From IMG/VR virus record IMGVR_UViG_3300048591_000469, positions 1-55,601 of that record: 55,601 nt of DNA; one strand, written 5' to 3'. Below, one piece after another: positions 1 through 54,767 of the stretch (within the stretch, counting starts at the first letter, position 1; each line of letters opens with the position of its first letter). The notes below the pieces were generated by a model. That model was not told where the DNA came from, searched no databases, and saw only the letters and a program-made list of their open reading frames with translations. Both the position numbers and the translations under genes were made by a program. Source of the stretch: a virus. Its lineage: Duplodnaviria > Caudoviricetes.

Positions 1-127
1 CACTTTTTCAACCGTAGGAGACAAAGCAATGAATCCCGAAGAGCTTCAACGCATGATCGCCGACGGCGTCGCTGCTGCGCTAAACCAACAGCGTGAGCAG
101 GATGCCGCCGCCGCCGCCGCCCAAGCC
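1..127. repeat. Direct terminal repeat, left copy (identical to 55475-55601)
   Basis: Sequence 1-127 recurs exactly at 55475-55601. The 127-nt length matches a common assembler k-mer, indicating a circular contig. Confidence 0.95.
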
Positions 128-1474
128 GCCTTTGACGCCGCCGTCAAGACCGAAGTCGACAAGCGCCTTGCGGGCAACCCCGCTGATCGCCGCTTGCCCT
201 CCTTCGAAGCGCCGAACGTCGCCCAATTCGGCAACATCTGGAAATACGACAACCTCGACGAAACGGACCTCGCCATCGCCATCGGCGTCCTCAAAGCCGC
301 CCGGTTGACCAACCGCTCGGAAGGTCCGAGCGAGAACTTGTTGCGGGCATTGGCCGTTCGCTTGGCCGACATGCCCGACCCGGACGGGCAATACATCGCC
401 TCGAAGATGGCGATGAAAGCCGCCGGGATGCCCGTCAAAGCCAACGAATTGAACCAGTCGACCCTCGCCTCTTACGGCGACGAATGGGTCGGCGTCACCT
501 ATTCGACGCAGATCTGGGACAAGATTCGCTTCGAAGCGCCGATTGTATCGAAGCTCCCGACCGTCGTCATCCCGCAGGGCAGCGAGTCGATTATCATTCC
601 GCTGAACTCGGCGTCCCCGACCTTCTACAAGGTCGCTCAAGCGTCGGCGATGGGGTCGAACCCGGGTCAATTGACGAACGTCGTCACCACCTCGAAGATG
701 TCGACCGACAAGGTCACGTTGACCGCCGGGAAGATGGGCGCGGCGGTCGCCTACACCGGCGAACTCGAAGAGGATTCGCTCTTGCCCTGGGCAAGCGAAC
801 TGCGCCGGGACTTGACCGCCGAAGCCGCTGAGGTCCTCGAACATTTGGTCATCGACGGCGACGTCGCCCCGGGCGCAACGACCAACATCAACCATATCGG
901 CGGCACACCGGGCGCGACCGACGTCTATACGCTGTTCGACGGCTTCCGCAAGCTGGCCCTTGTGACCAACACCGCCAACTCCCGCGACGGCGGCGTCCTG
1001 GACGTCTCCGACTTCCTGGAAACCGTCAAGCTCATGGGCGTTTCGGGCATCAACGCCATCGACCGCAGCAAGGTCAGCCTCCTGATCGACGTCAATACGC
1101 ATTGGTGGACTCTCGAACTGCCCGAAGTGTTGACGAAGGACGTCTTTGCGATGCCTACCATCGAAAGCGGGGCGCTCAAGTCTATCTGGGGCTACGAGGT
1201 CATCCCGACCGCCAACATGCATCGCGCCAGTGCGGTCCGCTTCGCCAATACGGCGGGCAAGGTCGACCAGACCACACCCGGCAATAACACAAAGGGCAGC
1301 ATCGTGGCGGTTCGTTGGGACCGCTGGCGCTTGGGCTACAAGCGCCGTGTAACCTTTGAGGTTGAACGGTCGGCGATGGCGGACGCCTCGACCATTGTCC
1401 TCATGATGCGCTGTGGCTTGCTGGCCCGCGACAACGAAGCCTCGGCGGTCAGCTACAACATCTCGAAGGTCTAG
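29..1474 (+). CDS. Major capsid protein (HK97 fold); also the C-terminal part of a protease-capsid ORF starting at 54879
   Basis: 481 aa with an Ala-rich scaffold-like N-terminus followed by capsid-like motifs (GKMGAAVAYTGELEEDS; EHLVIDGD; FDGFRKLA; IWGYEVI). GTAGGAG Shine-Dalgarno (SD) before ATG 29; lies ahead of the neck genes. Confidence 0.9.
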   Translation: MNPEELQRMIADGVAAALNQQREQDAAAAAAQAAFDAAVKTEVDKRLAGNPADRRLPSFEAPNVAQFGNIWKYDNLDETDLAIAIGVLKAARLTNRSEGPSENLLRALAVRLADMPDPDGQYIASKMAMKAAGMPVKANELNQSTLASYGDEWVGVTYSTQIWDKIRFEAPIVSKLPTVVIPQGSESIIIPLNSASPTFYKVAQASAMGSNPGQLTNVVTTSKMSTDKVTLTAGKMGAAVAYTGELEEDSLLPWASELRRDLTAEAAEVLEHLVIDGDVAPGATTNINHIGGTPGATDVYTLFDGFRKLALVTNTANSRDGGVLDVSDFLETVKLMGVSGINAIDRSKVSLLIDVNTHWWTLELPEVLTKDVFAMPTIESGALKSIWGYEVIPTANMHRASAVRFANTAGKVDQTTPGNNTKGSIVAVRWDRWRLGYKRRVTFEVERSAMADASTIVLMMRCGLLARDNEASAVSYNISKV

Positions 1475-1496
1475 TCCAGGTCAAACCGTGAACCGA

Positions 1497-1532
1497 CCCG
1501 CCCCGCCGTTTAAGCATCGACGGCGGGGCGGG
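1497..1532 (+). terminator. Strong hairpin after the capsid gene
   Basis: CCCGCCCCGCCGT-loop-ACGGCGGGGCGGG, a 13-bp perfect stem with no clear U-tract. Confidence 0.55.
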
Positions 1533-1553
1533 CTACGCCACAGGGGAACATAT

Positions 1554-3326: not shown

Positions 3327-3353
3327 GGATTTTCAAGCGAAAGAAGAAGCGCC

Positions 3354-7655: not shown

Positions 7656-9131
7656 ATGCCTCTTGTGAACTGGCGCTTGTTGATTGATTGGACTGTCACC
7701 GGCGACTACGTCGACGAATCGGCGCGCCTCGTTTCGGCCAATGGCAGCGTGCGTTATGGCGCTCCCGGCAGCGGCTTCATCACGCCTCGGAATACGGTCG
7801 ACCAGATGACGTTGACCCTTCGCAACACCGACCAATACTTCAGCCCGTTCAACGTCAGCGGTCCCATGTACGCCGGTCAAGCCTACCATGCGCCGGTGGA
7901 ACTCGACATCCAACTCGACGGCGGGTCCTTTGTACGGGTCTTTACGGGCGTTCTGAAGACACCCCAATACACGGTCGCCAACGAATCCGCACCCGGCACG
8001 GTCGCCTTAGAAGTCCGCAGCAGGGACGAACTCCTGCTCAACAAACGGGTATCGACGGGCATCGGGCTATTCCGCAACCTCAACGACGACCTGGCGTCCG
8101 AACGGGAAATCATCGAAGAATTCCTGATCGACAGCGGCATGCTGGCGGGAACCGACTGGACCAGCGACACCCTGGACCCGGGGCTTTTTGTCATTCCCTG
8201 GGCTTGGATGGATGACGAAAGCCCGGTCGAGGAGGCTTGGCAGCTTGCGGCGGCATGCGGCGGGCAATTCTACTGCGACGTCGACGGTCTATTCACCTAC
8301 GAGAATTTGACCCACTGGTTGCGCCAAGACCTGGTGACGCCGGTCGAAACGCTGACGCCCGACACCTACGCCGCCCTGGCGTCCCAATACAACGACCGGG
8401 ACCTCTACGCCGAGGTCATCGTCGAAACCAGCCCGCGCAGCCTGGGACCCATCACCGATCTATGGTCCCTCGAAGCGCCGCTGACCATTGGGTCGGGCGA
8501 AACCCGCACGGTGACAGCCCGCTTCCGCCAACCCTCGCCGGTCGTGACCGGCTTCGAGGTCGGCGCAGCGACGTCGGGCGGCGTCAACATGTCCAGCGTC
8601 CTATTGGTCAACCCGACCTATTACGCGCAGCGCGCCGAATTCGAGATCACGAACCCTGACCCTGCCTACGCCGTCGACCTGCTGACCCTGATCGTCAACG
8701 GCATCGCCCTCATCGGACGCCCCTCCCAAGAGCGGCGAGCAACGTCGACGGACCCCTTCTGGGGCAAGGGCAACTTGCGCCCGGGGCGGACGAAACTCGT
8801 CCGGGGCAACCCCTACCTGCAGACGGATTTTCAAGCGGGCGTCACGGCGACCTTCCTGCTCGACCGGCTCCAACTCCCGGCGCTACATCATCGCTGTTCG
8901 GGGCTTTCCGGCGTCCCGACCCGACGCCTGGGGCAACATGTCGCCGTCAACGATAGCCAATTCACCGGCGGCGCACGGTCGGCGCTCATCACCGCCATCA
9001 CCTTCCGCTTAGACAAGGCGGGCTTTTGGCAGGACCTAGAACTGATCGACATCGAGGACTGGCCCCAAACCAATTACTTTAAACTCGGGTCCCACAACCT
9101 CGACACGGCGGGCTACAAATTGTTTTATTAG
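7656..9131 (+). CDS. Putative baseplate hub/tail tip protein
   Basis: 491 aa; LTLRNTDQYFSP and GGQFYCDVDGLFTY motifs; synteny. Confidence 0.65.
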   Translation: MPLVNWRLLIDWTVTGDYVDESARLVSANGSVRYGAPGSGFITPRNTVDQMTLTLRNTDQYFSPFNVSGPMYAGQAYHAPVELDIQLDGGSFVRVFTGVLKTPQYTVANESAPGTVALEVRSRDELLLNKRVSTGIGLFRNLNDDLASEREIIEEFLIDSGMLAGTDWTSDTLDPGLFVIPWAWMDDESPVEEAWQLAAACGGQFYCDVDGLFTYENLTHWLRQDLVTPVETLTPDTYAALASQYNDRDLYAEVIVETSPRSLGPITDLWSLEAPLTIGSGETRTVTARFRQPSPVVTGFEVGAATSGGVNMSSVLLVNPTYYAQRAEFEITNPDPAYAVDLLTLIVNGIALIGRPSQERRATSTDPFWGKGNLRPGRTKLVRGNPYLQTDFQAGVTATFLLDRLQLPALHHRCSGLSGVPTRRLGQHVAVNDSQFTGGARSALITAITFRLDKAGFWQDLELIDIEDWPQTNYFKLGSHNLDTAGYKLFY

Positions 9132-9581: not shown

Positions 9582-9941
9582 ATGGCGTATACCGTCCCGC
9601 ATCGCTTCGCCCACCTTGAAGCGCCAAGCGCCGCCAACCTAAATGCCCTCAAGGCGAACCTCGAAGCCATCGACACGAGCATCGAGGATCGTGGGCGCAA
9701 CTATGCCGTCGGCGTGAACCGCACGACGACGCATGGCTTCTTCTTCGTTCACATTCACCGTTGGCTGCACATCTCCGGGTCCTACGAGATTCTGGACCCG
9801 TCGGGCGTCGGCGAGAACATCACCGGCGGCGTCGACGGGGAGCTTGCTGTGGTCGACCTGGACGGCATCGAATGGATGTCGCCGGGTAAAATCTACGCCG
9901 TCAAGGACGCCCTCTTCGCCGCCGAGGATTACGATGCCTAA
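9582..9941 (+). CDS. Minor tail protein
   Basis: N-terminal PSAANLN motif; shares the F..H.HR.LH motif with the upstream ORF. Confidence 0.55.
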   Translation: MAYTVPHRFAHLEAPSAANLNALKANLEAIDTSIEDRGRNYAVGVNRTTTHGFFFVHIHRWLHISGSYEILDPSGVGENITGGVDGELAVVDLDGIEWMSPGKIYAVKDALFAAEDYDA

Positions 9942-12900
9942 GAATCAATTCGAACGCAGCATCGACATTTCTGCGACCCGGGCGCGGGCTTCGGGCGGGT
10001 CCTCCATCGTGACCGCCCCGTCGGGCGGCGGCGGAACATACACGGCGGGCGACGGCATGCTGTTAACCGGGTCGGTCTTTTCGGTCAAGGCAACCGACCT
10101 GATCGGCGGGTCGCACGGCATCGAGGTCGTCAGTAATGATTTCCGCATCAAGCGGTCGACCGTTTCGGGATTGTCATTCGGCGGAACCGGCGGGCTGGAG
10201 ATCGCCGACAGCATCAAGGGCGACGGGCTAAACATCACCAGTAAAGTCCTGTCGGTCAAACTCAAGACACTGTCGGGCTTGGAGGTCAACGGCGACGGCA
10301 TCGCCATCGCCGATAGCATCAAGGGCGACGGGCTAAACTTCGCCAGCAAGGTCCTCTCGATCAAGCTCAAGACGCTGTCGGGCTTGGAAGTCGACACTAA
10401 CGGCTTGGCGGTCTGGGACGATCTGGCGGGCGAAGGGTTGACCATGAGCAGCAAGGTCCTCAACCTGACCCTCGCCGCCGTCGACCCGGGCTTAGTCATC
10501 GAGGACAGCGCCCTGCGCCTGGGGACGCCGGGTTCCTTGTCGGCGACGAGCGCCAACTCCCGAGCGGGCCTCACCCACTACCATGCGGTTACGGCAAGCG
10601 CCGACGTGCGGGCAGCGGTCGCCACGACCCTGCTCAAGGGCGACACTACGGGCAACCTGGGCCTCCGGGGCTTAGTTGTGGGCAACAACGACCTCCTGGT
10701 CGAATCCGACGTCATCGTCCCGCAGGGGCGGCTCTGGTTGAACCGGGGCGAAACCGTCGACAACCTGGCGACCCTGTTCGTCACCGCCCGCTCGGTAAGC
10801 TCGACCGAGTCGACCGTTCGCATTCGCCAACTGCCCGACCAGGAAGGGCGGATGCTTCGCATCGAGGACCAATACCAAAACGACCTGATCGTCGTCACCA
10901 ACCAGGGCGACCTCATGAGCGGCTACCCCGGATATGTCTCGGGGCAAACCGGCTGGATTGTCACCCATACCGGCTTCGCCGAATTCAACGACGTATTCGT
11001 CCGGGGCGAACTGCACGCTGTGACCTTCGTCGTGAACGAGGTGCATGCGATGGGCGGGTCGATGCTGGTGGCAACGGCGGGCATGCTCGACTCGGCGGTC
11101 GGGGCGGAATACGCCCTCGAAATCGAATCGGACGCGTCCCTCGAGGACCCGCAACTGCTCGAACTCGATGCCGACGTGAACCCGGTCGACGTCGGGGTCC
11201 TGGGCGTCGACGCCGACATTTATGCGTTCGACATCCGCAACCCGCCCTCGGGCAAAGCGCAGATCTTCTTCGAAGGCGAAATCATCCGGACGAAGTCGGT
11301 CTGGGAGCATGGCGTCAGCGACGGCTGGTTCGAGATTTACGAGGTCATCGACCAGGGCGACAAATTCCAGTATTGGGGAACGTTGCGACACGGCGGCGCA
11401 GGCTTTATGCCCGCCGGGGCGGCGGTCGTCTCCTACGGGTTCCCCGACGACGGGCGTATTTTCATGACGTCGGATTATCCCTATGCGCCCTACATCGACG
11501 TCTTCACGACCGGCGCAACGCCCTGGAATGGAACCGTCCCGCACCTGCGCCTGGGGCGGCTGGACGGCTTGGGCGCGTTGCCCGAGATCACGGTCGGCGT
11601 CAAAGAATACGGCATTGCGATGGGGTCGAACCTGTCCGACGACCAGGCTCCCTACGTCATCGTCTCGAACCGCCAAGCGATTTTCAACCGAGTCAACATC
11701 ACCAGCAAGGACGGCACATACAAGACGGGCTTCCTGGGTGCGGACGGCACATTTAAGCTCGGGACCAACATCGACGTCGCCGCGTCGACGGGCTTCGCGT
11801 TCGACCCGGCAACGGGCATCGTTCGCTTGGGCAAGGCGGGCGCGCAGCGGGTCGAGTGGAACCCGAACGTCGGCGGCGGAACCCTCACGCTGCAGGGCGA
11901 TTTCGTCATTGCGCCGGGAACCATCAATTACACAGATCTCAACGGCAAGCCGACCAGCCTGGACCAAATCCAGCCCGGGTCTAACGCCGAAATCGACAAC
12001 GCCCTCGACGAAGCCCTGGCGGGGCTTGCAGCTGCATCTGCAGCCCAGGCGACCGCCAATGCCGCGTCGTCGAGCGCCTCAACGGCCAATGACGGCGTCA
12101 CCACGATCAACGCAACCCTGGGACCCATCGCCTCCCGGGTCAACGCCCCGCCGTCGGGGCGGGGTCTGTTCCTCAACGCCGACCGCATGGGTTACTACGC
12201 CAACGGCGCATGGCGGACCTATATGGACGCCTACGGGAACTTCTACCTGAGCGGCGGCTATTCCGACAACTATCTGGAATGGGCGTCACCCAACCTGACC
12301 GACGCATTGTCACCCAAGCAACTCGAGATCAGCGGCGTCATTCAGGTCCTTTCGGGCAGCAACGTTTACAACAAAACCGAACTGACCAATGTCGACGGGA
12401 CGGGCATCGTCGACGTTGCGGTCGACGGGGCGCGCCAATTGGCGGGTCAATACGCCGACCGGCGCAGCCTGGTCGCCGTGCGCCAGTCGCCGGGTTTCGC
12501 CCTGGCGGGCAGCGACGGCAACACCCTCACCTGGACGGGGCTGACGGTTGTCCTGGGCGACGGGACGGTCATCACGGTTTCGGATTCGAGCGCCGGTCAC
12601 ATCCTCAACACCACGAACCGGACCCGGACCTCCTATTACATCACCGGCACGATCTACCTGGTCGTCGACGGCGCAAATGCCGATGGCGTCGTCACTACGC
12701 CTCAGAAGCTCCGCATCGTGACCAATACGGCGAACCTGACCGCCGGACGCATCGTCATTGCGGTCGCCGTCCCGAATACCGTCGACGAAGCCGCCAACCC
12801 CGACGCCCGGGCAAGTTTGCACATCATGGGCGGTCCGATTTTCATTGGCAACGGCTGGATTCGGGCGGGCGCAATTACGACCGCCAACCTGACCGCCGGG

Positions 12901-16765: not shown

Positions 16766-16777
16766 AAGGGCCTTACT

Positions 16778-17062: not shown

Positions 17063-17082
17063 ACCGGACGGGTCCCCCCACG

Positions 17083-38250: not shown

Positions 38251-38321
38251 GGTTCCACCCGGGCGGGACCGCCGAGGTCCCGCCCGTCACCATCACCGTT
38301 TTTCAAACAAGAGGAGCATGT

Positions 38322-39893: not shown

Positions 39894-40097
39894 CTACAAG
39901 CCCGCCATTTCGCCTTGCTTGCGGGCTTCGTCGACCAAGCGGCGGATCTGTTCGCTGGTCGTGCGCGCCCCGTCCCGGCGCAAGAATTCCAGGTCCGACT
40001 GGCGCAACGTCACCCGGACCTGAAAGGTCGGGTCGACGGCGTCCTCGGTCGGCAACGTTCCATCGAGGCGCGGGCGTCCGCGCGGCTTGCGGGTCAC
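39894..40097 (-). CDS. RHH DNA-binding protein with an RGRP hook
   Basis: PRGRPR then VRVTLRQSDLEFL...SEQIRRLVD; GTG start after AAGGAG. Confidence 0.7.
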   Translation of the reverse strand: MTRKPRGRPRLDGTLPTEDAVDPTFQVRVTLRQSDLEFLRRDGARTTSEQIRRLVDEARKQGEMAGL

Positions 40098-44286: not shown

Positions 44287-45737
44287 GTCGACGCCGCAAG
44301 GCGGACGCCCCGGGAACCGTCACATACGACTTCTCGAAGCTCTGCGGTTTCACCGCCAAGCAGTTGACGGCGACCCAGGTCGCCGACCGCCATCGCTATA
44401 CCCTGTTCGGCGGGTCCCGAGGACCGGGCAAATCCTACTGGCTTCGCTGGTATATGTTGCGGTTGCTCTTCATCTATTTTCAACACAGGAAGCGCGAGAA
44501 CGTGCGCGTTATGTTGGGGTGCGAGGACTACCCGACTCTCTACGAGCGGCAGATCGTGAAGATCATCGCCGAGTTTCCGAGCGACGTCGGGACCTATTGG
44601 CCTTCCAAGACCGAGTTTCGCCTTGCGCCCCGCTTCGGCAGCGGGGTCCTGGCGCTACGTAACCTGTTGGAACCCGACCGTTACCAATCCGCCGAGTTCG
44701 CCGCCATCGGCATCGACGAGTTGACCAAGAACCCGGAAACGACCTTCAACACCCTGCGCGGGTCGTTGCGTTGGGCGGGCATCCCGGACACCCGCTTCGT
44801 CGCCGCAACCAATCCCGAGGCGAATTGGGTCCGACGTTACTGGATCGAGCGGGACTTTCCCGAGGCACTACGCCCGGACGCCGACCAGTTCGCCTTTGTC
44901 CCGGCGCTCCCGGACGATAACCCGCATCTGGACCCGTCCTATTGGCGCATGCTCGAAACGTTGCCCTCCGAGGCGATGCGCCAAGCATGGCGCTACGGGG
45001 ACTGGTACGCCGCCGCCGAAGGGCGGGTCTATGGCGAGTTCAACGCCGCCAACCTGACCGAGGATGAACCCGACCCGGACCTGCCCATCGAGGTCGCCAT
45101 CGATGACGGCTATTTCCCGGACCCACGCGCAACGCTCTTCATCCAAAAGCGGGCGGACGGGTCGGTCCTGGTCTTTGCCGAGCTATACGAGCGCCAGGTC
45201 CTGGAGGAGTCGACCATTGAACACATCAAGGACTACGTCGAAGCGTTGAACGCAACGCTTTATCAAACCTCCCTGATCGACCTGGTCGACGCCGTCGTCA
45301 AGCCCGAAGGCGAAAGCGTCCTGGACGTTCTGGACGTTGCGCCCGGGTTCTACCGGATGCCGCAGATGGCGATTGTGTCCCACGAGGCGATTCAATTGCG
45401 GCATCGGTTGACCGCCGCCGGGATTCCCGCCCGCAACTGGATGGGCGTCAAGCGTCCCGCCGGGACGAGCAGCATGCGCCTCGCCGCCATCAACTTGACC
45501 CGGCGCATGATCTGCGACGGAAAGGGCGTCCGCCGCATCTTCGTTCACACCCGCTGTCGCAACCTGCGCGACGAAATCACGGCGGGCTACAAATATCCGG
45601 ACGGCGAGAATTCGCCCTCGGCGATGCCTGCCGACGGCAATGATCACGCCTGCAACGCCCTGGAGTCGTGGGTCTGGTATCGGTTGGGAGGGGCAGCCAT
45701 GTCGGCGGAAAGCATGGTCGACTTCCCGGAAACATAG
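44283..45737 (+). CDS. terL: Terminase large subunit
   Basis: GGSRGPGKS, IGIDE, ATNP, DNPHL, IDDGY..P, NDHACNA. Confidence 0.92.
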   Translation: MSRRRKADAPGTVTYDFSKLCGFTAKQLTATQVADRHRYTLFGGSRGPGKSYWLRWYMLRLLFIYFQHRKRENVRVMLGCEDYPTLYERQIVKIIAEFPSDVGTYWPSKTEFRLAPRFGSGVLALRNLLEPDRYQSAEFAAIGIDELTKNPETTFNTLRGSLRWAGIPDTRFVAATNPEANWVRRYWIERDFPEALRPDADQFAFVPALPDDNPHLDPSYWRMLETLPSEAMRQAWRYGDWYAAAEGRVYGEFNAANLTEDEPDPDLPIEVAIDDGYFPDPRATLFIQKRADGSVLVFAELYERQVLEESTIEHIKDYVEALNATLYQTSLIDLVDAVVKPEGESVLDVLDVAPGFYRMPQMAIVSHEAIQLRHRLTAAGIPARNWMGVKRPAGTSSMRLAAINLTRRMICDGKGVRRIFVHTRCRNLRDEITAGYKYPDGENSPSAMPADGNDHACNALESWVWYRLGGAAMSAESMVDFPET

Positions 45738-45751
45738 GAGGGACTTTTTCA

Positions 45752-45958
45752 ATGTCTGCCCAGGAGTTGGTCACGTTCATCGCCCTGATCGACCCGGAAA
45801 CCCATCACAAGATCGGGCGCTATTGCCCGTCGACGGGCGACCTGGTCATTTTTAAGCGCCAGCGGGACGCCCGGTTCAACCTACACCGGCTCACCGCCGC
45901 CGTTAAAATTGACACGACCCCTTGCGACTCGCAAGGGGCTATGCTAGAATCCGAGTAA
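45752..45958 (+). CDS. Small hypothetical protein between terL and portal
   Basis: AGGAGG SD; 68 aa. Confidence 0.6.
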   Translation: MSAQELVTFIALIDPETHHKIGRYCPSTGDLVIFKRQRDARFNLHRLTAAVKIDTTPCDSQGAMLESE

Positions 45959-46031: not shown

Positions 46032-49000
46032 ATGACCCTAATTGACCGCATCGCCGCGATGCTTGGCTACACCAAAGCGCAGCGTAAGCCCCTGCCGCCG
46101 ACCTGGATGTCGCAGACCGCCGACTACCTGGACACCGAACCGCCCGCCGACCTGGAAGTTCACTATGACCTGTACGAAAAGCTCTCCTGGCTGCAGGTCG
46201 CCATTGGACGGGTCGCCGACACGGCGGCTTCGGCCAAGTTCGAGGTTTTCAAACATAGCAAGGAGAAGGAGTCGGCCATTCAAGCCCACGACTTCGAGAA
46301 ATTGCTTCAGAACCCGAACCCCGACACCGACCGTCACCAACTAATGCATGGGACGTTTCTCTACCTCAGCCTCGGGGCAGCGGCTTGGTGGCTCAACCGC
46401 AGCGGTCCCGACGTCCCGCCCGATGAGATTTGGCTCATCCCGCCGCACCAACTGCGCGCCGTTCCCGACGAACGCATGTCGGTCCGGGGCTACCTCTACA
46501 ACCCCGGCGACGGGCGGGAGATTCCCCTGGAACCCTGGGAGGTTGTCCACTTCCGCAAGTTCAACCCCAAATCCCGCTACATCGGCCTCCCAACCGCCCG
46601 CGCCGTCGACCAGATTTCCCAGGGCGACATTGCGATGCAACGGTGGAACCGGAACCTGTTCGCCAAAGACAACGCCAAGTTACCCGGCGCATTGGCGTTC
46701 TCGGACCCCATCGATGACGTCACCTGGCGAACCATCAAGCAGGACATCAACGATCAGCACGGCGGGACCAAGCGCAGCCTCATGATGCTTCGCAACGTCG
46801 GGCAGGGCGGCGTCCAGTGGCTCAACATGGCGCTTTCCCAGACCGAAATGCAATTCCTCGAAAGTCGGGTCGCCAACAAGGAGGAGATCTTCGCCTTGTT
46901 CGCCCCGGGCTTGGCGTCGGTCCTGGCGGTCAACGCAACCGAAGCGAACGCCGTCGCCGGGAAGCGCACCTTCATCGAGTTCGGAGTTTGGCCCACCATG
47001 ACGGCGGTCGCCGAACGCATCACCTCGCAAATCCTGCCCTCCTACGGTGACGACCTGGTCGGGCGCTTCGAAGATATCCGGGTCACGGACCGGGCGCTCA
47101 AGCTCCAGGAGATGAACGCCTACGCGATGGTTCACACCGTCGACGAGGTCCGCAAGGAGTTTTATCAAGCCAAGCCCATCGGCGACTACCGGGGCGACTT
47201 GCTGCTGGCCGAAATCCCGCAGGGCATCACGCCCGACCCCGATGCCGAGGAACCCGCGCCGCCGCCGCAAAGTCCCGCACAAAGCCCCTTCGACGAACAA
47301 GCGCCCGAGGACCCGTCAAGCCCACAGGAACCGCAGGACACGGCGATTGGACCCGATGCCGTCGGTCAGGACCTCGACAACCCCGACGCCCCGCCAGAGG
47401 ACCCGCAAATCGAAGCCAAGAGCGCCGAATTGCGCCGTTACCGGCGATGGGTCGCCAAGCGCATTTGGAAGGCATCGTTCGACCCTGACGCCTTCGAATC
47501 GCCGTTCCTCACGACCGCCGACCGCCAAGCCGTCTTGGCCGAGGCGGGTTGGCACACCTGGCCCGATCACGAATTCTTCGACGCCACGAAGGGCGGACCC
47601 GGCAGCGGCAATTGGGGACACGACGGGCGCAGAGGGCAACGGGGCGGCTCACGCCCGGGCGGCGGGCTGCACCTGCAGCGGCTGGACCCGGCGTCAACCG
47701 TTGACGAGCGTAAGCAAGCCTTCGGCGTCTATCGCCAGTTCGTCCCGACATTGTCATCCCCTGAGCGCGCCGCACGCGAAGCGCACGTCAACCGCATCGT
47801 CGCCAATTCCGGCACGGTCGGCACACAGGGGCAAATGCGCCCCTTCGTGGGCGAAGCGCAGACCGAGATGGCGAAGGCGCTCATGATGCACGACAGCCGC
47901 GTCCTGGAGCAGGTCAAACAGATCCGCGTCGCCCACAACGCCGCCGCATGGCAAGCCGAAGCGGTCGCCGCCGGAATGAAGCCCGCCAGTGCGCCGAACG
48001 TCCTGGGTTTCACCTACGCCATGAAGGGTCAAGCGGGCTACGGAACCATCTGGCTCCAGTCCTACGGCAACAGCCAGCGGGAACGCATGACCCTCCACCA
48101 CGAAATCGGACATACGGTCTACGGGGCGACGACGCAGCAGGGTCGCCAAGACTGGATCGACTTCTACAATGCGGGCGGCAACCATCACACTGCCTATTCG
48201 GGGACCAACCGGGCGGAGGGTTTCTCCGAATCCTACGCGGGCTGGTTGTGGGCGAAGGGAACGCAAGCGCCCGACGCCGTCACCCGGTCGAACCTGAGCG
48301 CCGTCCCGTCCCTCGCCGCTTACCGAGACACGTTTAATTCGGTCGCCAATGTCATCGCCGCCATCCCGGCGTCAACGCCCACCAAAGCCGCCCGCATCAC
48401 TCGTGCGGACCTTTTCGGCGACGTGAAGGCGCTCACCCGCACCAACCTCCTCGCCGCCCACGAGTCGACGATCAACGTCGATTGGCCCAAGTTGAGCGCC
48501 GCCGCCCAATCCCAATGGCAGGTACGCCACGAAAAGAGCGACCTTCCGGGCGTCCCGGGCGACGCCCGAGTCTGGTTCGCCGACGTGGTCGTCGCCCACG
48601 ATGCCGCTTGGCAGGGTGACGGCAACGGCAAGAGTCTATTCATCGAGGCGCTTGCGCCCTGGGTCGCCGCCCTCGAAACCGCACAGACGGCGCTTCGGGG
48701 CAAGGGTCCGCTCAAGGCAGGATTTTCAAACCCTCTCCGGGTCGCCTCGGCTCGTTGGGAGTCGCTTCCGCCCGACCGCCGTCGCCAGTGGGTTGACGGC
48801 TACGATGATCTGGATTGGGTCGGCAAACCGCCCCATCCCGTCGAGGGGTTCGCCGATGCCGTCGTTGCCCACCGGGCGCTCGACGGGGCGTCACCCGACG
48901 AGATGATGGACCTCGAGGGGTTCCAGCCCTACCGGGACCTATTCGGTCGCTTAGGGACGGTCCTGGACCCTAAGCCGGGGCAGTCCGCCGCCCCGACCAA

Positions 49001-49898
49001 AGGCGGACCCGGCAGCGGCAACTTCGGTCATAAGGGTCGCCCCGGGTTTCGGGGCGGCAGTGTTGCGGGCGGCGGGTTGGGCGCAATCGGCGTTGATCGC
49101 ACGGCAACGCCCGACGAGCGCCGCAACGCCGCAGCCGCATTCCGGCAGAAAGCGCCGGTGACGGTCCCGACCCAGGACCCGAAGCGGGCGAAACTACTCG
49201 CCTCGACGACCTTCGAAGCGTTCGGTTCCACCGACGCCGAGGTCGACACTGCATTGTCAAGCATTGGCTTGACCCGGGAGGATGTCACCTACATGATGGC
49301 GCTCGACGGGTTCAACGGCGAGGTCGCTTCTTTCTTGCAGGGCGGGAAGCTGTTCGTTGCGGGCGAATACACCCTGGAGAGCAATCCGAACGTGACGGCG
49401 ACTGTGATGCGTGGCTTTTACCAAGAAGGCGACGAATGGCACGTCGACCACATGAAATTCGGCATCGACGGCATCCATCACGGTCGGGGAACCGCCCAGG
49501 ACCTCTACGCCCGCCAGATCGAAACTTACAAAGCGGCGGGCATCGTCGCCGTTCACACCCATGCCGACATCGACGTCGGCAGGTACGCGTGGGCGAAGAT
49601 GGGCTTCGAATACGACGAAAGCGGCGGGAGCAACATCGCCCGCAAAACGAAGCAATTCGAGCATTGGGCGAAGAAGCTCGGCATCGACCCACCTGACGGC
49701 GGCTGGCCTACGTTCCAACGGCCCCATGATTTCGCAACCTACAAGCATCCCGACGGGCGCAAGGTCAACGCCAACGATATGGGCAACTGGCAGGGCAAAT
49801 TCCTCCCGGGCGATTACGACATCGGGAAGGCATTCATGCTCGACGACAACGGACACGGCGACTGGTACGGCGTTCTGCCGCTCAAGGGGCAACCATGA
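46032..49898 (+). CDS. Portal protein (HK97-type, ~aa 1-395) fused to zincin-protease and GNAT-like domains
   Basis: LLQNPNP, EVVHFR.FNP..RYIGL, MQFLESR portal motifs; HHEIGH plus NRAEGFSE; HGRGTA...GRYAWAKMGF. Confidence 0.9.
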   Translation: MTLIDRIAAMLGYTKAQRKPLPPTWMSQTADYLDTEPPADLEVHYDLYEKLSWLQVAIGRVADTAASAKFEVFKHSKEKESAIQAHDFEKLLQNPNPDTDRHQLMHGTFLYLSLGAAAWWLNRSGPDVPPDEIWLIPPHQLRAVPDERMSVRGYLYNPGDGREIPLEPWEVVHFRKFNPKSRYIGLPTARAVDQISQGDIAMQRWNRNLFAKDNAKLPGALAFSDPIDDVTWRTIKQDINDQHGGTKRSLMMLRNVGQGGVQWLNMALSQTEMQFLESRVANKEEIFALFAPGLASVLAVNATEANAVAGKRTFIEFGVWPTMTAVAERITSQILPSYGDDLVGRFEDIRVTDRALKLQEMNAYAMVHTVDEVRKEFYQAKPIGDYRGDLLLAEIPQGITPDPDAEEPAPPPQSPAQSPFDEQAPEDPSSPQEPQDTAIGPDAVGQDLDNPDAPPEDPQIEAKSAELRRYRRWVAKRIWKASFDPDAFESPFLTTADRQAVLAEAGWHTWPDHEFFDATKGGPGSGNWGHDGRRGQRGGSRPGGGLHLQRLDPASTVDERKQAFGVYRQFVPTLSSPERAAREAHVNRIVANSGTVGTQGQMRPFVGEAQTEMAKALMMHDSRVLEQVKQIRVAHNAAAWQAEAVAAGMKPASAPNVLGFTYAMKGQAGYGTIWLQSYGNSQRERMTLHHEIGHTVYGATTQQGRQDWIDFYNAGGNHHTAYSGTNRAEGFSESYAGWLWAKGTQAPDAVTRSNLSAVPSLAAYRDTFNSVANVIAAIPASTPTKAARITRADLFGDVKALTRTNLLAAHESTINVDWPKLSAAAQSQWQVRHEKSDLPGVPGDARVWFADVVVAHDAAWQGDGNGKSLFIEALAPWVAALETAQTALRGKGPLKAGFSNPLRVASARWESLPPDRRRQWVDGYDDLDWVGKPPHPVEGFADAVVAHRALDGASPDEMMDLEGFQPYRDLFGRLGTVLDPKPGQSAAPTKGGPGSGNFGHKGRPGFRGGSVAGGGLGAIGVDRTATPDERRNAAAAFRQKAPVTVPTQDPKRAKLLASTTFEAFGSTDAEVDTALSSIGLTREDVTYMMALDGFNGEVASFLQGGKLFVAGEYTLESNPNVTATVMRGFYQEGDEWHVDHMKFGIDGIHHGRGTAQDLYARQIETYKAAGIVAVHTHADIDVGRYAWAKMGFEYDESGGSNIARKTKQFEHWAKKLGIDPPDGGWPTFQRPHDFATYKHPDGRKVNANDMGNWQGKFLPGDYDIGKAFMLDDNGHGDWYGVLPLKGQP

Positions 49899-50737
49899 TC
49901 ATCGAAGCGGGACCGAAAGACCGCCCACCCGGGGACACCGACATCGAATTCTGGGGCGTCGGTCCCGGCGAGGACGGCATCCTCCCCTATTGGGAGATTT
50001 TCAACCTGCCCGCCCCGACCTGGGCGAAACCGCCGGTTAAGGGCGGACCCGGGTCAGGCAACTTCGGACATAGAGGTCGCCCTGGCTTTCGGGGCGGCAG
50101 CGTCGCGGGCGGGCGGGGCGGCGGGGCGGCGCTCAACGCCGAGCGAACGATTGGAACGCTGGTCAACGCCGCTCAGGGGCGCACCTTCGGCGACTTCGAC
50201 TTCGAGACGATTCCCGACGACTACACCGACTGGAACGCCAGCCTTAGCCCTGACGAGCGCAGCGCCATCACCTATTACGTCGGGGCGGGTTACGCCCTGA
50301 TCAACCGGCGCTTACGGGCGGAGGATACGTCTAACGCCAAAACCAATGACCGGGTCCGCTTGCTCGATGCGGCGCTTGCCCGCAGCGAAATACCCGCCGA
50401 CGGCATGCTCTATCGCGGCATCACAGGGCGACCCTTCCCCGAGGAACCCGGGGCGGTCTTTGCTGATCTCGGCTTTTCGTCGACGTCGGTCAACCCCGGC
50501 ATCGCCGACAACTTCAGCCAATCGGCCCGGGTCAACGACCCCAATAACGCCGGACCCGTCAAGGACTCCCAGGTCATGCGAATCAAGGTCATGAAGGGGC
50601 AACGGGGCGCATACGTGTCGAATTTAGGGATGGCGCTCGAGGACGAAATTCTCCTGCCGCGTGGGTCACTCTTCAAGGTCGAAGCGGTCACAAAAGATGC
50701 CAATCGAACCATCATAGACGTGATATACTTGGGGTAA
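49895..50737 (+). CDS. ADP-ribosyltransferase, R-S-E (VIP2/C3/Alt-like) class
   Basis: Y..INRRLR, LYRG, GFSSTS, EDEILLPRG. Confidence 0.9.
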   Translation: MIIEAGPKDRPPGDTDIEFWGVGPGEDGILPYWEIFNLPAPTWAKPPVKGGPGSGNFGHRGRPGFRGGSVAGGRGGGAALNAERTIGTLVNAAQGRTFGDFDFETIPDDYTDWNASLSPDERSAITYYVGAGYALINRRLRAEDTSNAKTNDRVRLLDAALARSEIPADGMLYRGITGRPFPEEPGAVFADLGFSSTSVNPGIADNFSQSARVNDPNNAGPVKDSQVMRIKVMKGQRGAYVSNLGMALEDEILLPRGSLFKVEAVTKDANRTIIDVIYLG

Positions 50738-50738
50738 T

Positions 50739-50921
50739 ATGAGCGACAAATTTTCAACCAACACCAGCGATCTAGTCTTTTTGCAGGACGATGCGGCCAT
50801 TGAGCGATTCCTCAAGGAACGAGGTCGCCCATTGACGTTGCCCGATTGGGCGCAACCCGTCGACCCCGCACCCACCGAACCCGACGCAGCTGAGGATGTC
50901 CCGGGAGGGCAACCGGCATGA
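50739..50921 (+). CDS. Small acidic protein after the ART gene
   Basis: 60 aa; starts 1 nt after the ART stop and overlaps the next start (ATGA). Confidence 0.6.
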   Translation: MSDKFSTNTSDLVFLQDDAAIERFLKERGRPLTLPDWAQPVDPAPTEPDAAEDVPGGQPA

Positions 50922-52537
50922 TCTTCGTGAATCCCTACACCGGCGAAGTGTACGAAGGGGAATTCCCCGCAACGGTTGAACTGCCCGAAGCCGAAGAAGG
51001 CGACAACGGGCTGATCGCAATGGTCCTGGCGACCTACGATGACGGCGATGTCGGCTACGCCGATGCCGTCGTGCGCTATATGTTCCTGCAAGGCTACGCC
51101 GCCCTCGAAGAGGACGATTTGTCCGACGAGGAACTGGCGGCGCTTGGGTTGGAACGGGACGAGGTCGACGACGTCGCCTTCGACGAGGACGAAGAGGGCG
51201 AGGACGAGGACGAAGAAGAGGACGAAGAGGACGAGGATTCTCAAACAAGACCGCCCGCCAAAGGCGGACCCGGGTCGGGCAACTGGGGACATCTGGGGCG
51301 ACGAGGCAACCGAGGCGGGTCCCGACCCGGCGGCGGACTGGCGCGCATCGGGACCGACCGGGCAGCGTCGCACAACCGGCGCGTCGAAGTCTCGTTCAGT
51401 TACCGCAACCGCCGCGCCGACGAGATGATCGCCGAGGGCGCAAACCCACCCGGCAACCGCATGCCGCGGGCGGGCAACTGGCATCCGACCACACCGAAGC
51501 CGCCCAAGCTCCCGGGGCAGGGCGGGCTACCAACGACGCCAAGACCGGGGACTGGTACGAATCGACCTCCCACCCCGCCAACGACGCCCACAGCCCCGCC
51601 CAAGCCGACGACGCCCAAGCCACCGGCCACACCCAAGCCACCGAAGCCGCCGGTCGCACCCAAGCCGCCCACACCGCCGCCCGCACCGCCGCCGCCGCCC
51701 AAGCGTCCCGGCCAAGATGCACCCGGCGAATTCGACGATCACTTCAAGAAATTTGGGAAGAGCGGCTACAAGCGGGACGGGCAAGAAATCGCCGACATCG
51801 TCGGGGCAAAAATCGACCCGAACGATGTTAACGGCTCGTACATGGCAGTTATACGGGGAGCGCAAGCATCCACTTCCCAGATGAAGGGCGTCGTCTCGCA
51901 AGACGACAACTTGGCGGTCATCATGGAGGCGCAGGGTTTTCATTCGAAGCCGAAGGTCGTCGACAAGGACGGCATGGACGAGATCATCCGGGACGGCGGC
52001 ATCGAGGTTTATCGTGGCGTTCGGGGCGGGTCCCTGCAGGGGACCGTCGACATGGTCCAAAGCTACGCCACCGGCGACCATTTCGTCGGGCAGGGCATTT
52101 ACGGCAACGGAACTTACACCGCCGAGGACTACTCGTTCGCGAAGGGTTACGCCAATCAGTACGCCAACGGCGTGATGCGTATCGCGCTCCACAAGGATGC
52201 GAAGGTCATCGACTACCCTGCCGCCAAAGCGGCAACCGATGCCCTCAGCCGCTCGAAAGCGAAGAAGACCGTTGCCGACCGTGCGGTCGTCGCCGACAAC
52301 GTCGGGCGATGGGCGGCGCTCAACGGCTACGATGCCATCCGGGTCAACGTGCAAGCCGAGAATTACGGCGGCGTCGGTCACTTCTTCGTCATCCTGAACC
52401 GGGGCGCAGTCGCTGTCCAGAACCCGAAGGACGGGGACGTCGCAGATCCGGGCTACCGACCGGCGGTCACGAATAAATACGTCCCGCAAAACACAATCCC
52501 AAACCCGAAGCCGCCCCTGCCAAAGGCGACCTCGTAA
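50918..52537 (+). CDS. Acidic leader, Gly-rich tag, Pro-rich linker and a second ART-like domain
   Basis: EVYRGV, GQGIYGNGTY......AKGYA, GYDAI, FVILNR resemble ART-fold strands; the terminal catalytic Glu is not evident. Confidence 0.7.
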   Translation: MIFVNPYTGEVYEGEFPATVELPEAEEGDNGLIAMVLATYDDGDVGYADAVVRYMFLQGYAALEEDDLSDEELAALGLERDEVDDVAFDEDEEGEDEDEEEDEEDEDSQTRPPAKGGPGSGNWGHLGRRGNRGGSRPGGGLARIGTDRAASHNRRVEVSFSYRNRRADEMIAEGANPPGNRMPRAGNWHPTTPKPPKLPGQGGLPTTPRPGTGTNRPPTPPTTPTAPPKPTTPKPPATPKPPKPPVAPKPPTPPPAPPPPPKRPGQDAPGEFDDHFKKFGKSGYKRDGQEIADIVGAKIDPNDVNGSYMAVIRGAQASTSQMKGVVSQDDNLAVIMEAQGFHSKPKVVDKDGMDEIIRDGGIEVYRGVRGGSLQGTVDMVQSYATGDHFVGQGIYGNGTYTAEDYSFAKGYANQYANGVMRIALHKDAKVIDYPAAKAATDALSRSKAKKTVADRAVVADNVGRWAALNGYDAIRVNVQAENYGGVGHFFVILNRGAVAVQNPKDGDVADPGYRPAVTNKYVPQNTIPNPKPPLPKATS

Positions 52538-52576
52538 ACGTCCAGGCGCACGAATCGCAAGCAAAGGAACAAGCAG

Positions 52577-52900
52577 ATGATTACACCCGACGACAGCCGG
52601 GAATTGGCTCGGATTTTCAACCTGATCGGCAACGGGCTGACCTCCGCCGACAAGGACGCGCTGCTCGACGCCGCCCTTGCCGCCGACTCCATCGCCAAGA
52701 TGCCCGCCCCGCTCAAGGCGAAGCTCGTAGCCGCCGCCCTGCGGGGCAAGACCCAAGAGGAATTCCTCGCCCTCGACGAAGCCGCCCAACGGGCGCTGCT
52801 TGGCCCGAGCGACGTCGGCGGTGACGGCGACGAAGAGGAGGACGAGGACGAGGACGAACCCGAACCCGTCGCCAAAACGGCCCGCCGCTACTATCCATGA
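52577..52900 (+). CDS. Small protein with acidic tail
   Basis: 107 aa; AAGGA SD; ends EEEDEDEDEPEPVAKT. Confidence 0.6.
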   Translation: MITPDDSRELARIFNLIGNGLTSADKDALLDAALAADSIAKMPAPLKAKLVAAALRGKTQEEFLALDEAAQRALLGPSDVGGDGDEEEDEDEDEPEPVAKTARRYYP

Positions 52901-54285
52901 TGTCCCTGCACCCCGACCCTGTCGGACGCAATGCTCCTTCCCTTGCTGGCGACCTGGCGGTTAAAACCCGCCAGGTCGTGCCACATCTGGACGGAAACGA
53001 CGTCGAACGGGAAGCCCTCGAAGCCCGTCATGCGACCGCCCTCGAGGGCGCTTTCCGCAAAATCATCCGGGCATTGGTCCCACCCGGCACGACCGCCGAG
53101 TCGCTGGCGGACCAGGGAGCCGTTGCGCGGACCTTTACGGCGTCCCTGCAGCCGCTCTATGACGCGTGCTACACCATGCTCCGGGACGCCGCCATGTTTG
53201 GCGCTTCGATTGGGCTGGAGCAGGTCGAAGCCCTGCAAATCGCCCCGGCGAAGGCGGACATTGTCATTGCCGACCTGACCGACTGGTCGATGGTCAACGA
53301 CGACGTCGTCGCATGGCTGACCAACCCGAACGCCAATTACACGCGCCAACTCGTCGAATCCATCGGCCAAAATTCGGCGAGCCAGGTCTACCGACTCGTC
53401 AATGCGTGGGTTCAGGACGGTCGCCCGTTGAACGCACTGGTCGCCGACCTGGAAACTATGCCCTTCTCGCCGCAGCGGGCGCGGCTGATCGCCACAACCG
53501 AAGTTACCCGGGCATTCGCCCAGGGCAAAAACATCGCTTGGCGCAGGACCGGCGTCGTCGAGCGCCGTCGCTGGCACACCGGCAACGACGAACTGGTCTG
53601 CGAGGTCTGTCAACGCCTTGACGGGCGGGAGGTTGGCTTGGACGAACCCTTCGATGACGTCGGGCGCATCATGTATCCGCCCGCACACCCGCGCTGCCGT
53701 TGCACCGTGCAACCCGTCATCCCGGTTTCGTCGCCGGTAAGCACCGACTACACGTCACCCGGCCTACGCGACCCGGTCATTACTTTTTCAAACCGTCGCA
53801 ACCAGGATGACGACCGCTTGAGTCTGAGCGGCATTCCCTTCCGTCAAGCTCCTGCTGCCGCATGGGGTAAAATCCCTGATCGGGCGTTGCCGTCCGAACC
53901 GTATGACCTGCCGCCCCTCACGCCGACCGCACGACGACGGGGCGTCGGCGTCCTCGTCGTGGAAGAGGACGGGCGGGTCTGGGTTGTAAAGACGGACGAT
54001 GATGACATGTACGAGATTCCGACCGTCGCCGTCCCGAAGGGGCTGACGTTGCAACAAACCGCCCTCTGGCACGCATACCAGGCAACGGGGTTGATCGTCG
54101 ATTTGGTCGACTACGTCGTCGACAGCCCGGTCGACGGCATCGTCACCCGCTACTATGTCGCCAAGCGCAGGGCGGGCGCTCCCTGGGGCGCACGCAGCAA
54201 GCGATGGGTTTCCCTGGCGACAACCCGTCACGCCGCCAGCTACGCCAACCGCATGGCGGACCGCAACATTCTGCGTCAATTCTAG
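52897..54285 (+). CDS. MuF/SPP1 gp7-like minor head protein with a C-terminal degenerate NUDIX-like domain
   Basis: RARLIATTE, W.T..DE.VC..C..LDG, PPAHPRCRC; C-terminal GVGVLVVEEDGRVWVV...P......TA......TGL. Confidence 0.85.
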   Translation: MMSLHPDPVGRNAPSLAGDLAVKTRQVVPHLDGNDVEREALEARHATALEGAFRKIIRALVPPGTTAESLADQGAVARTFTASLQPLYDACYTMLRDAAMFGASIGLEQVEALQIAPAKADIVIADLTDWSMVNDDVVAWLTNPNANYTRQLVESIGQNSASQVYRLVNAWVQDGRPLNALVADLETMPFSPQRARLIATTEVTRAFAQGKNIAWRRTGVVERRRWHTGNDELVCEVCQRLDGREVGLDEPFDDVGRIMYPPAHPRCRCTVQPVIPVSSPVSTDYTSPGLRDPVITFSNRRNQDDDRLSLSGIPFRQAPAAAWGKIPDRALPSEPYDLPPLTPTARRRGVGVLVVEEDGRVWVVKTDDDDMYEIPTVAVPKGLTLQQTALWHAYQATGLIVDLVDYVVDSPVDGIVTRYYVAKRRAGAPWGARSKRWVSLATTRHAASYANRMADRNILRQF

Positions 54286-54293
54286 GAGGTCCC

Positions 54294-54767
54294 ATGCCCA
54301 CCCTTCGCATCGAAGGCGTCGACCGGGTCGACAAGAAGCTCGGGCGCATCGCCGCCGGTCAATTCCTATCAATCCCGATGGAGCAATCCCTCGCCCTGCT
54401 CCAAGCCGACCTGACCCGTTACCCGCGCCGCAGCCAGAAGCCCGCCCACCTGCGCGGGCGTTTCGTCTCCGACCGCCAGCGGCGCTACGTCATGATGCTG
54501 GTCCGGCAGCGGGGCGTTCCCTACCGGCGCACCGTCTCGGCGGGTCTACAGGGCGCGTGGACTTACCGCATCACGCTCAACCCGGGCGGCGGGGTTCTAG
54601 GCGTCCTGGGCAATAACAAGGAATATGCGCGTTATGTGCAAGGCGACCAGGACCAGGCGCAGATTCACCGGGGAAATTGGCCCACCGACCGCCAGGTTTT
54701 CAACCATCGCGAGCGCCAGATCGTCGGCTTCTTCCGGCGGGCAATTCGAATGGCGCTTTCCGCTTGA
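54294..54767 (+). CDS. Virion morphogenesis/neck protein (HK97 gp10-like)
   Basis: LRIEGVDRV, YRRT..L..AW, GNNKEYARYVQG; AGGAGG SD. Confidence 0.7.
   Translation: MPTLRIEGVDRVDKKLGRIAAGQFLSIPMEQSLALLQADLTRYPRRSQKPAHLRGRFVSDRQRRYVMMLVRQRGVPYRRTVSAGLQGAWTYRITLNPGGGVLGVLGNNKEYARYVQGDQDQAQIHRGNWPTDRQVFNHRERQIVGFFRRAIRMALSA

Follow-up and report, generated by a model that had tools for sequence, protein, structure and literature searches.

TTTTCAA, a heptamer confined to one strand of a circular phage contig, with a Chi-like signal as a tentative reading

Why should one seven-letter word, TTTTCAA, recur some thirty times along a phage genome and always on the same strand? The window analysed here is the whole 55,601-nt record IMGVR_UViG_3300048591_000469, which holds virus sequence only. 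An initial annotation had listed 30 copies of the word on the + strand, had found no copy of its reverse complement TTGAAAA, and had proposed a directional signal for a host translocase in the prophage, or for packaging, ejection or recombination. Exact counting gave 31 copies on the + strand and 0 on the minus strand. All 30 listed positions were recovered, and one further copy, at 55479, had been missed. Bases 1-127 are identical to 55475-55601, indicating that the contig assembled as a circle of 55474 bp; the copies at 5 and 55479 coincide, which leaves 30 unique sites. The lack of any copy within 28961-38299, also reported earlier, is real by exact count. The prophage setting, on the other hand, did not hold up: the phage contig is circular and free, with no host flanks in the window.

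The word is far more frequent than composition predicts. The window has a G+C content of ~63%, and 100 dinucleotide-preserving shuffles served as the null model. The expectation was 4.49 copies for both strands summed (standard deviation 2.40, maximum 11), and none of the 100 shuffles reached 31. Per strand this amounts to ~2.2 copies, close to the value of roughly one that had been proposed. TTTTCAA (+30/-0) has the highest strand asymmetry among all 7-mers, as does TTTTCA (+38/-0) among all 6-mers. The word also has sharp edges, with T preceding 30 of the 32 TTTCAA on the + strand and A following 30 of the 38 TTTTCA. When up to one mismatch was allowed, 82 matches were found against 85.5 expected in the shuffles, so that no excess exists beyond the exact sites. 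Hand counts over the 30 sites gave A in 18, T in 10 and G in 2 at position -1, C in 15 and A in 8 at position +1, and C in 23 at position +2; the selected unit is about W-TTTTCAA-M-C. The outer flanks are unrelated, and therefore the sites are not copies of a repeat element. Folding of 15 of the 30 sites as single-stranded DNA revealed no common hairpin (z -1.45 to +1.57). The unique TTTTCAA sites are as follows.

5-11 (the same as 55479-55485, inside the 127-nt overlap), +, intergenic, 24 nt ahead of the major head protein start (29)
1606-1612, +, 12 nt ahead of an ATG at 1618, coding status uncertain
2475-2481, +, head-tail adaptor gene, codon position 3 (TAT TTT CAA CCG, YFQP)
3330-3336, +, 24 nt ahead of the major tail protein start (3354)
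8828-8834, +, gene 7656-9131, codon position 3
11681-11687, +, 1430-aa tail gene, codon position 2
15901-15907, +, tail fibre gene, codon position 3
17445-17451, +, overlaps a possible ATG (TTTTCAATG) of a small hydrophobic open reading frame (ORF)
18741-18747, +, endolysin gene, codon position 1
19351-19357, +, endolysin gene, codon position 2
19899-19905, +, gene 19599-20078, codon position 1
20611-20617, +, antisense to the unsupported minus-strand ORF 20400-20897, 533 nt beyond the last + gene
21283-21289, +, antisense within the minus-strand WDGH-domain gene
26067-26073, +, intergenic, 29 nt ahead of a TTG at 26096
26560-26566, +, intergenic, 6 nt from the 3' end of tRNA-Arg(GCG)
27287-27293, +, antisense within the minus-strand integrase gene
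28954-28960, +, intergenic, directly 3' of a copy of the 20-nt GTGCGGACCTTT element and 171 nt ahead of the replication module
38300-38306, +, intergenic, after a GC hairpin, 16 nt ahead of the ATG at 38316, taken as the start of a MazG-like gene
39685-39691, +, PolX-thumb gene, codon position 2
43252-43258, +, ParB-like/N6_N4 methyltransferase gene, codon position 3 (LFQ)
43795-43801, +, methyltransferase gene, codon position 3 (HFQ), 105 nt ahead of the small terminase start
44477-44483, +, large terminase gene, codon position 3 (TAT TTT CAA, YFQ)
45746-45752, +, just 3' of the terminase stop, overlaps a possible ATG (TTTTCAATG)
46246-46252, +, portal-fusion gene, codon position 2 (VFK)
48723-48729, +, portal-fusion gene, codon position 1
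49998-50004, +, ADP-ribosyltransferase-like gene, codon position 2
50751-50757, +, between genes (50737 to 50918), where a short ORF may start at 50739
52614-52620, +, gene 52577-52900, codon position 2
53785-53791, +, MuF-like gene, codon position 1
54697-54703, +, gene 54204-54767, codon position 2

Reading frames were assigned by arithmetic from the ORF list and the exact positions. Seventeen sites lie in confident + strand genes and begin at codon positions 1, 2 and 3 in 4, 7 and 6 cases, respectively. Codon position 3 reads xxT TTT CAA, three rare codons given that the G+C content at third codon positions (GC3) of the genes is ~0.8. Three sites are antisense in minus-strand ORFs, two of which are supported genes, and ten are intergenic or of uncertain coding status. 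The initial annotation held that the polarity persists inside minus-strand genes; this stands for 27287 in the integrase gene and 21283 in the WDGH-domain gene, but not for 20611, where the ORF is unsupported. No copy is co-oriented with minus-strand genes, in agreement with the earlier view that gene direction alone gives no explanation. The three antisense sites are near the edges of the minus-strand blocks, and the block cores hold no TTTTCAA in either orientation. TTTTCAA does not flip with gene direction, and its full independence from transcription depends on these three sites only.

Protein alignments bear on how the sites arose. At the large terminase site (44477) the phage has a loop, IYFQH, that is one residue longer than VW-AG and similar sequences in 6 relatives. 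The adaptor site (2475) encodes YFQP, compared with (R/Y)(F/Y)DA in two relatives, and the D-to-Q and A-to-P replacements gave rise to TTTTCAACC. Alignments of the methyltransferase and portal proteins with relatives were too divergent for site comparison (21-25% identity). At both of the two alignable sites, comparison with these relatives indicates a lineage-specific change of the protein that makes TTTTCAA. Dicodon usage, which had been named as a trivial source of the counts, fails as an explanation, given that all three frames are used and that two sites were made by amino-acid change. The use of three frames, the antisense sites and the amino-acid changes together mean that selection acts on the DNA. 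TTTTCAA is a real, selected, strand-specific DNA-level signal beyond composition, codons and gene direction.

Whether related phages share the polarity had also been raised, and those found do not: strands are mixed and counts are at chance level. No close relative of the phage is present in any collection searched. Megablast against cultured phages gave no match, and tblastn gave at most ~31% identity. The nearest large terminase among IMG/VR, GTDB genomes and metagenomes reaches no more than 57% identity, and the nearest capsid no more than 64%. No primase relative above 35% identity was found among the viral contigs of IMG/VR, searches with the helicase and the methyltransferase returned no relatives, and the regions 5' of the capsid gene gave no alignment with relatives. 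Relatives at 41-64% protein identity lack the polar set. Each of the 11 closest terminase relatives (identity 49-57%) carries 0-3 TTTTCAA, the strands being mixed, and five capsid-relative records, 165 kb in all, hold 7 forward and 9 reverse copies. Counts in relatives match chance (6 against 6.8 expected in L012, 17 against 14.3 in L020), and the terminase relatives carry the word mostly on the non-coding strand, opposite to the phage. The set thus appears, from these comparisons, to be specific to this lineage.

To place the sites among the genes, 66 ORFs were scanned against PHROGs, and subsets also against Pfam and NCBIfam. The resulting map is that of a temperate, siphovirus-like phage, judging from gene content with an integrase; a tape measure was also recognised among the tail genes. 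The main features, assigned by family scan where so marked, are listed below.

29-1474, +, major head protein (family scan)
2311-2913, +, head-tail adaptor (family scan)
start 3354, +, major tail protein, tail tube (family scan)
9733-14025, +, 1430-aa tail gene
14492-16765, +, tail fibre gene (family scan)
17934-19496, +, endolysin (family scan)
20.2-25.7 kb, minus, first minus-strand block
20940-21476, minus, WDGH-domain gene (family scan)
26572-26645, minus, full tRNA-Arg(GCG), adjoining the integrase
26751-27746, minus, integrase (family scan)
29.1-39.8 kb, +, replication block with Sak4-like AAA_24, UvrD-like helicase, Prim-Pol + CHC2 primase, DinG/XPD-like helicase, MazG and PolX-thumb
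35166-36020, +, primase with a Prim-Pol (archaeo-eukaryotic primase, AEP) domain and a CHC2 DnaG-type zinc ribbon (PF09250 1e-13, PF01807 1.6e-10, TIGR01391 dnaG N-terminal part 5.9e-11)
38778-39794, +, PolX-thumb gene (family scan)
39.9-42.4 kb, minus, second minus-strand block
42536-43900, +, ParB-like/N6_N4 methyltransferase (family scan)
start 43900, +, small terminase (family scan)
start 44169, +, large terminase (family scan)
46032-49898, +, portal fusion of 1288 aa with a long C-terminal extension (family scan)
49895-50737, +, ADP-ribosyltransferase-like ORF, 3' of the portal fusion (family scan)
52897-54285, +, MuF-like head morphogenesis gene (family scan)

Spacing and start-codon distances were computed by hand from the exact positions. 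The mean spacing of TTTTCAA is 1.85 kb. The smallest gap between sites is 493 bp, where random scatter would give ~7 shorter gaps, and 14 of the 30 inter-site gaps fall within 493-912 bp. The densest zone begins at the methyltransferase and terminase genes and extends across the head genes, with 17 sites in 15.5 kb; the word is also dense near the lysis genes and sparse in the tail genes. The 9.3-kb stretch without TTTTCAA (28961-38299) holds the Sak4-like annealing protein, the UvrD-like helicase, the Prim-Pol primase and the DinG/XPD-like helicase, and four more site-free gaps measure 3.6 to 5.5 kb each. Seven sites lie 5-29 nt upstream of a start codon, against <1 expected by chance in a hand calculation. 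These start-proximal sites probably arise because intergenic DNA is free to change; their distance to the start varies, and at two sites the word overlaps the ATG.

What might read such a word? We tentatively suggest that some enzyme tracking DNA one way may read TTTTCAA, and that the pattern is closest to that of Chi-rich phages. Start sites for a primase and sites of single-strand nicking, which the initial annotation had not named, fit no less well. Our approximate ranking places a Chi-like signal first, as a possibility short of an expectation, followed by a primase start site, a nick site and, as an unlikely case, a transcript-level signal, with the remainder assigned to none of these.

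If TTTTCAA is Chi-like, a host helicase-nuclease of the RecBCD/AddAB type would enter a free double-strand end, either that of the injected genome or one left by terminase cutting a concatemer. The enzyme would travel leftward and meet TTTTCAA from the 3' side on the strand coding for terminase and head genes. There it would switch from DNA degradation to recombinase loading, so that phage DNA would be protected and recombination-dependent concatemer formation would be fed. The reader, the packaging direction and all steps after recognition are what we infer. The + strand, which holds all TTTTCAA, codes for the terminase, portal and head genes, and both an excess of the word and a single orientation relative to the packaging genes are observed.

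The sections of PMC12315714 that deal with Chi in phage genomes report 23 Chi in phage LLS (20 top, 3 bottom; 1 per 1.86 kb), 1 per 1.90 kb in P1, and 32 top-strand and 0 bottom-strand 'Chi' in Pseudomonas phage MD8. According to the same sections, the top strand is the active Chi orientation for RecBCD entering the right end, and phages with both Chi and a Rec module lack Chi for several kb around that module (PMC12315714). TTTTCAA resembles the Chi words of these phages (LLS and related lambdoid phages, P1, MD8) in being a short exact word, many-fold over-represented, on the strand coding for terminase and head proteins. Its density, 1 per 1.85 kb, is like the figures given there for LLS and P1, and the sole long site-free block is centred on the Sak4-like gene, as those sections describe for Chi phages with a Rec module. 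The phage is also like Chi-rich lambdoid phages in being temperate, by its integrase, and in having no recognised RecBCD inhibitor: the family scans recognised neither an exonuclease nor any anti-RecBCD protein, of the Gam type or otherwise. Absence of TTTTCAA from relatives of other base composition would be expected if the word follows the host.

Several points weigh against a Chi-like signal. An anti-RecBCD gene could be hidden among the ORFs that lack annotation, about half of the total. TTTTCAA is AT-rich with no G and one C, unlike known Chi; all eight tabulated Chi sequences are G-rich (8/8; PMC5959072). Unlike in LLS, sites do not cluster toward the presumed right end and reach their highest density in the 15 kb that follow the terminase genes. 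Moreover, a Chi word would be enriched and leading-strand skewed in its host's chromosome, and no such excess or skew was found in the sampled Chloroflexota, which may not include the host. GC-rich Chloroflexota among these genomes have at most ~1 TTTTCAA per 10 kb, and none is comparably dense. The only genome in which orientation could be read, G399, has 67 against 65 copies by orientation in its first 1.285 Mb and thus no polarity.

The host is perhaps a member of the Chloroflexota, on weak hints. Among genomes, the terminase finds its best match on a 5.5-kb contig assigned to the metagenome-assembled genome (MAG) of an uncultured member of the Chloroflexi, and the structural neighbours of the endolysin N-terminal domain are Chloroflexota proteins. 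Host-side tallies were made over 401 sampled Chloroflexota genomes, including six unpublished ones, and the true host may lie outside this sample. The best matches to the tRNA-Arg among them are 86-89% identical and none is exact, and the endolysin N-terminal domain matched 0 of the 401 at 1e-12. TTTTCAA is usually ~2 times as frequent as its reversed control across the sample. Five GC-rich genomes picked by tRNA match have ~1 TTTTCAA per 25-55 kb, on both strands. The clearest usable excess is that of G399 (337 against 63), partly because of small TTTTCAA/TTGAAAA palindromes. In G399:C1, from this GC-rich genome, many TTTTCAA face a TTGAAAA ~6-7 nt downstream (for example 185759/185773, 523506/523520, 607196/607209, 1266326/1266340). 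The excess in G013 comes partly from +/- pairs ~130-180 bp apart (5 pairs among 83 sites), the MAG G001 shows an excess of only 1.6-fold, and the fully listed contigs of G027 and G375 carry the word on mixed strands. As a separate observation, the 20-kb sequence L115 (G027:C24) holds 6 TTTTCAA where 1.6 would be expected, five of them on + and one on minus; four same-strand copies lie within 3.3 kb (14553-17848) of this GC-rich Chloroflexota contig, one of them overlapping an ATG as TTTTCAATG, just like 17445 and 45746 in the phage.

A recombination signal, as first proposed, therefore stays a candidate in its Chi-like form by its density and strand parallels, while the host-side skew that would accompany it was not found. 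For a packaging or ejection signal nothing was found in favour. The proposed signal for a host translocase is not supported: the record is no prophage within a chromosome, one site every 1.85 kb is much denser than the FtsK-orienting polar sequences (KOPS), and no skew on the host side was seen. KOPS and the SpoIIIE recognition sequences (SRS) are G-rich words of host chromosomes, present at ~1 per 10 kb or sparser, oriented to dif and read by FtsK or SpoIIIE. TTTTCAA is like them in being a polar word of the kind a translocase reads, and unlike them in lying on a free phage genome at its much higher density, with no skew in the one readable Chloroflexota genome (G399). The stoperators of cluster A mycobacteriophages, 13 bp long, mostly intergenic and flipping with transcription direction, offer another comparison. 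They resemble TTTTCAA in that a single asymmetric word recurs many times across the genome of a temperate phage, whereas TTTTCAA is mostly within genes and none of its copies flips.

The reader need not belong to the host. It is possible, and we would put it no higher than that, that TTTTCAA is a private signal read by a phage enzyme, either as a primase start word or as a Chi-like 'self' mark that stops a phage helicase-nuclease. A word present at 1 per 1.85 kb in the phage and at 1 per 25-55 kb in the five Chloroflexota would let such an enzyme tell phage from host DNA with no base modification.

Primase start sites are a slightly less probable candidate. Here the phage primase (35166-36020) would need TTTTCAA on its template to begin a primer, and start sites for Okazaki fragments would be seeded on the + strand. 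The predicted primer is 5'-GAAAA from 3'-CTTTT-5', the 3' AA being read and not copied, and forks or a rolling circle would run with most transcription, making + always the lagging-strand template. The genome encodes a candidate reader with a zinc-binding template-reading domain (PF09250, PF01807 and TIGR01391 matches); T7 gp4 reads a template word, 5'-GTC-3', with the same zinc-ribbon type. A precedent for a longer word exists in the Prim-Pol of phage NrS-1, for which the relevant part of PMC8718748 gives an 8-nt recognition sequence, 5'-TTTGGTTA-3', and also states that this specificity later proved flexible, a point against the reading. The kilobase-scale spacing with no close pairs (at least 493 bp apart) fits signals each serving a DNA stretch, the T-rich word would yield a primer with a purine start, and the word co-occurs with a primase that has no relative above 35% identity, relatives being without the word, all this in one genome only. 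TTTTCAA is thus like the T7 gp4 and NrS-1 words in being short, asymmetric and T-rich, and it would be on the lagging template if forks follow transcription, the candidate template word being carried in ATTTTCAACC. It is unlike them in that those words are 3-4 nt long or flexible and not known as polar selected genomic sets, and we know of no genome seeded with primase words this polar and selected, no search aimed at them having been made. The 9.3-kb block and the four gaps of 3.6-5.5 kb imply that frequent priming is not essential, and the folds of 15 of the 30 sites share no single-stranded structure.

A lower probability goes to single-strand nicks. A phage enzyme would nick the + strand at or near each TTTTCAA in packaged DNA, as happens in T5, phiKMV-like phages and Pseudomonas phage tf. 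In the part of PMC3517423 that describes nicks in tf, 14 sites 5'-TACT/RTGMC-3' all lie on the top strand, with none on the bottom, the genome having two transcription units that converge; 17 sites are counted with any single substitution allowed, all on the same strand, and their function is described as unknown and their presence as shared across the tf group (PMC3517423). TTTTCAA reproduces this pattern as described there, an exact word on one strand whatever the gene direction (21283 and 27287 are antisense), and it resembles the nick sites of T5, phiKMV and tf (LUZ24-like) in its one-strand consensus, strong excess and few near-variants, a likeness seen here at the level of the word itself. 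The lack of an excess of one-mismatch forms (82 against 85.5 expected) agrees with this, and a compositionally rare word would give the phage full control over nick placement. The DENT-seq paper (PMC7849381) holds no T5 data. The assembly breakpoint of the contig lies 4 nt ahead of a TTTTCAA site; the hand-computed chance is ~1%, and the observation is post hoc and weak. Against nicking, no nuclease or nickase was recognised in the family scans (PHROGs, Pfam, NCBIfam), the phage is temperate by its genes, and the density is ~2 times that reported for tf in the part cited. The sites are also not kept in relatives, unlike what that part reports for the tf group, though the relatives here are far more distant.

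It is unlikely that the word acts in the late and other rightward transcripts or is coupled to transcription, whether by marking where RNA is processed or by binding a factor on the non-template strand, instead of serving replication or recombination. Such a signal would suit the 27 of 30 sites that lie outside minus-strand ORFs, in + genes or between genes. It would also suit the three antisense sites, which lie 533, 1205 and 925 nt past a + gene and could be reached by read-through, the site-free cores of the minus clusters (21290-26066 and 39894-42355), and the seven sites 5-29 nt ahead of start codons. However, no copy is co-oriented with minus-strand genes in ~10 kb, and the replication genes on the + strand also lack TTTTCAA, which shows that transcription by itself does not set where the word occurs. 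Most sites moreover lie deep in long genes, and the start-codon distance varies, two sites overlapping the ATG.

That the pattern comes from codon or dicodon usage, composition or chance, or solely from avoidance of the inverse orientation under Type III or Type ISP restriction with its head-to-head sites, is very improbable: frame 2 (xTT TTC AAy) does use the preferred codons TTC and AAC, the one-mismatch words TTATCAA and TTGTCAA are common on +, and Type III avoidance, of which T7 and EcoP15I are the precedent, would account for zero copies on one strand, but 0 of 100 shuffles reach the count, the 4/7/6 frame usage includes the rare-codon xxT TTT CAA, 13 sites are outside + coding frames, two were made by amino-acid change, relatives are at chance level with the word mostly on the non-coding strand, and avoidance cannot produce a 14-fold excess.

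Several specific readings were considered and set aside. The downstream TTR part of an integration host factor (IHF) site is absent at the one site checked by eye. T4-type late promoters do not suit many sites deep in long genes and two overlapping ATGs, and a hairpin, as an intrinsic terminator would need, precedes only 2 sites. Neither a DarT-type ADP-ribosylation motif nor Type III avoidance accounts for the excess.

Genome-wide polar words are rare, and each points to a machine that reads DNA one way. Were a Chi-like signal correct, TTTTCAA would be the first AT-rich Chi and would yield the recognition sequence of an end-processing nuclease from an uncultured, probably Chloroflexota, host. 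Were a primase or nickase the reader, the phage would be rewriting its own proteins, as in the terminase insertion and the adaptor replacements, to place enzyme sites, and replication direction or virion DNA structure could be read from sequence alone. Either way, 30 exact sites are a clean substrate for simple biochemistry.

Other features of the genome were recorded alongside. The primase at 35166-36020 fuses an archaeo-eukaryotic Prim-Pol domain to a bacterial DnaG-type CHC2 zinc ribbon. For the 379-aa first ORF of the replication block, an Atlas search gave no usable match. Bacteria mostly use the ACG anticodon for tRNA-Arg, and the phage tRNA has GCG.

The genome contains repeats of other kinds. 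A second element of ~20 nt, GYGCGGACCTTTNCGGCGAC, has 11 matches when as many as 3 mismatches are allowed, 7 of them on + and 4 on minus, against 0.18 expected, all within 17913-53144, for example at 33046-33065, 39771-39790 and 48403-48422, with weaker copies near 1856, 14045, 19618 and 25968. Copies occur both within and between genes, and four in-gene copies share the same frame, (V/A)R(T/G)F(T/A)A. A divergent pair (28856-28875 on minus, 28921-28940 on +) lies just 5' of the replication module and is operator-like. The low-GC intergenic region between the integrase and the replication module holds a 73-nt inverted repeat (28251-28323/28686-28758), its arms 79% complementary and separated by 362 nt, that may have a regulatory role or belong to an origin.

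Two further repeats lie in structural genes. An 85-nt segment occurs four times, at 47589-47673, 48999-49083 (the reference), 50039-50123 and 51260-51344, with 62-80% identity to the reference. The copies are spread over the portal-fusion gene, the ADP-ribosyltransferase-like gene and the ORF that follows in the head region and, by reading, code for a glycine-rich peptide, KGGPGSGN[FW]GH.GR...RGG; they may be linkers or processing sites of head-internal proteins. A tandem 105-nt repeat at 10188-10397, in the 1430-aa tail gene, consists of two copies that are 82% identical, and its 34-nt core recurs in weaker form.

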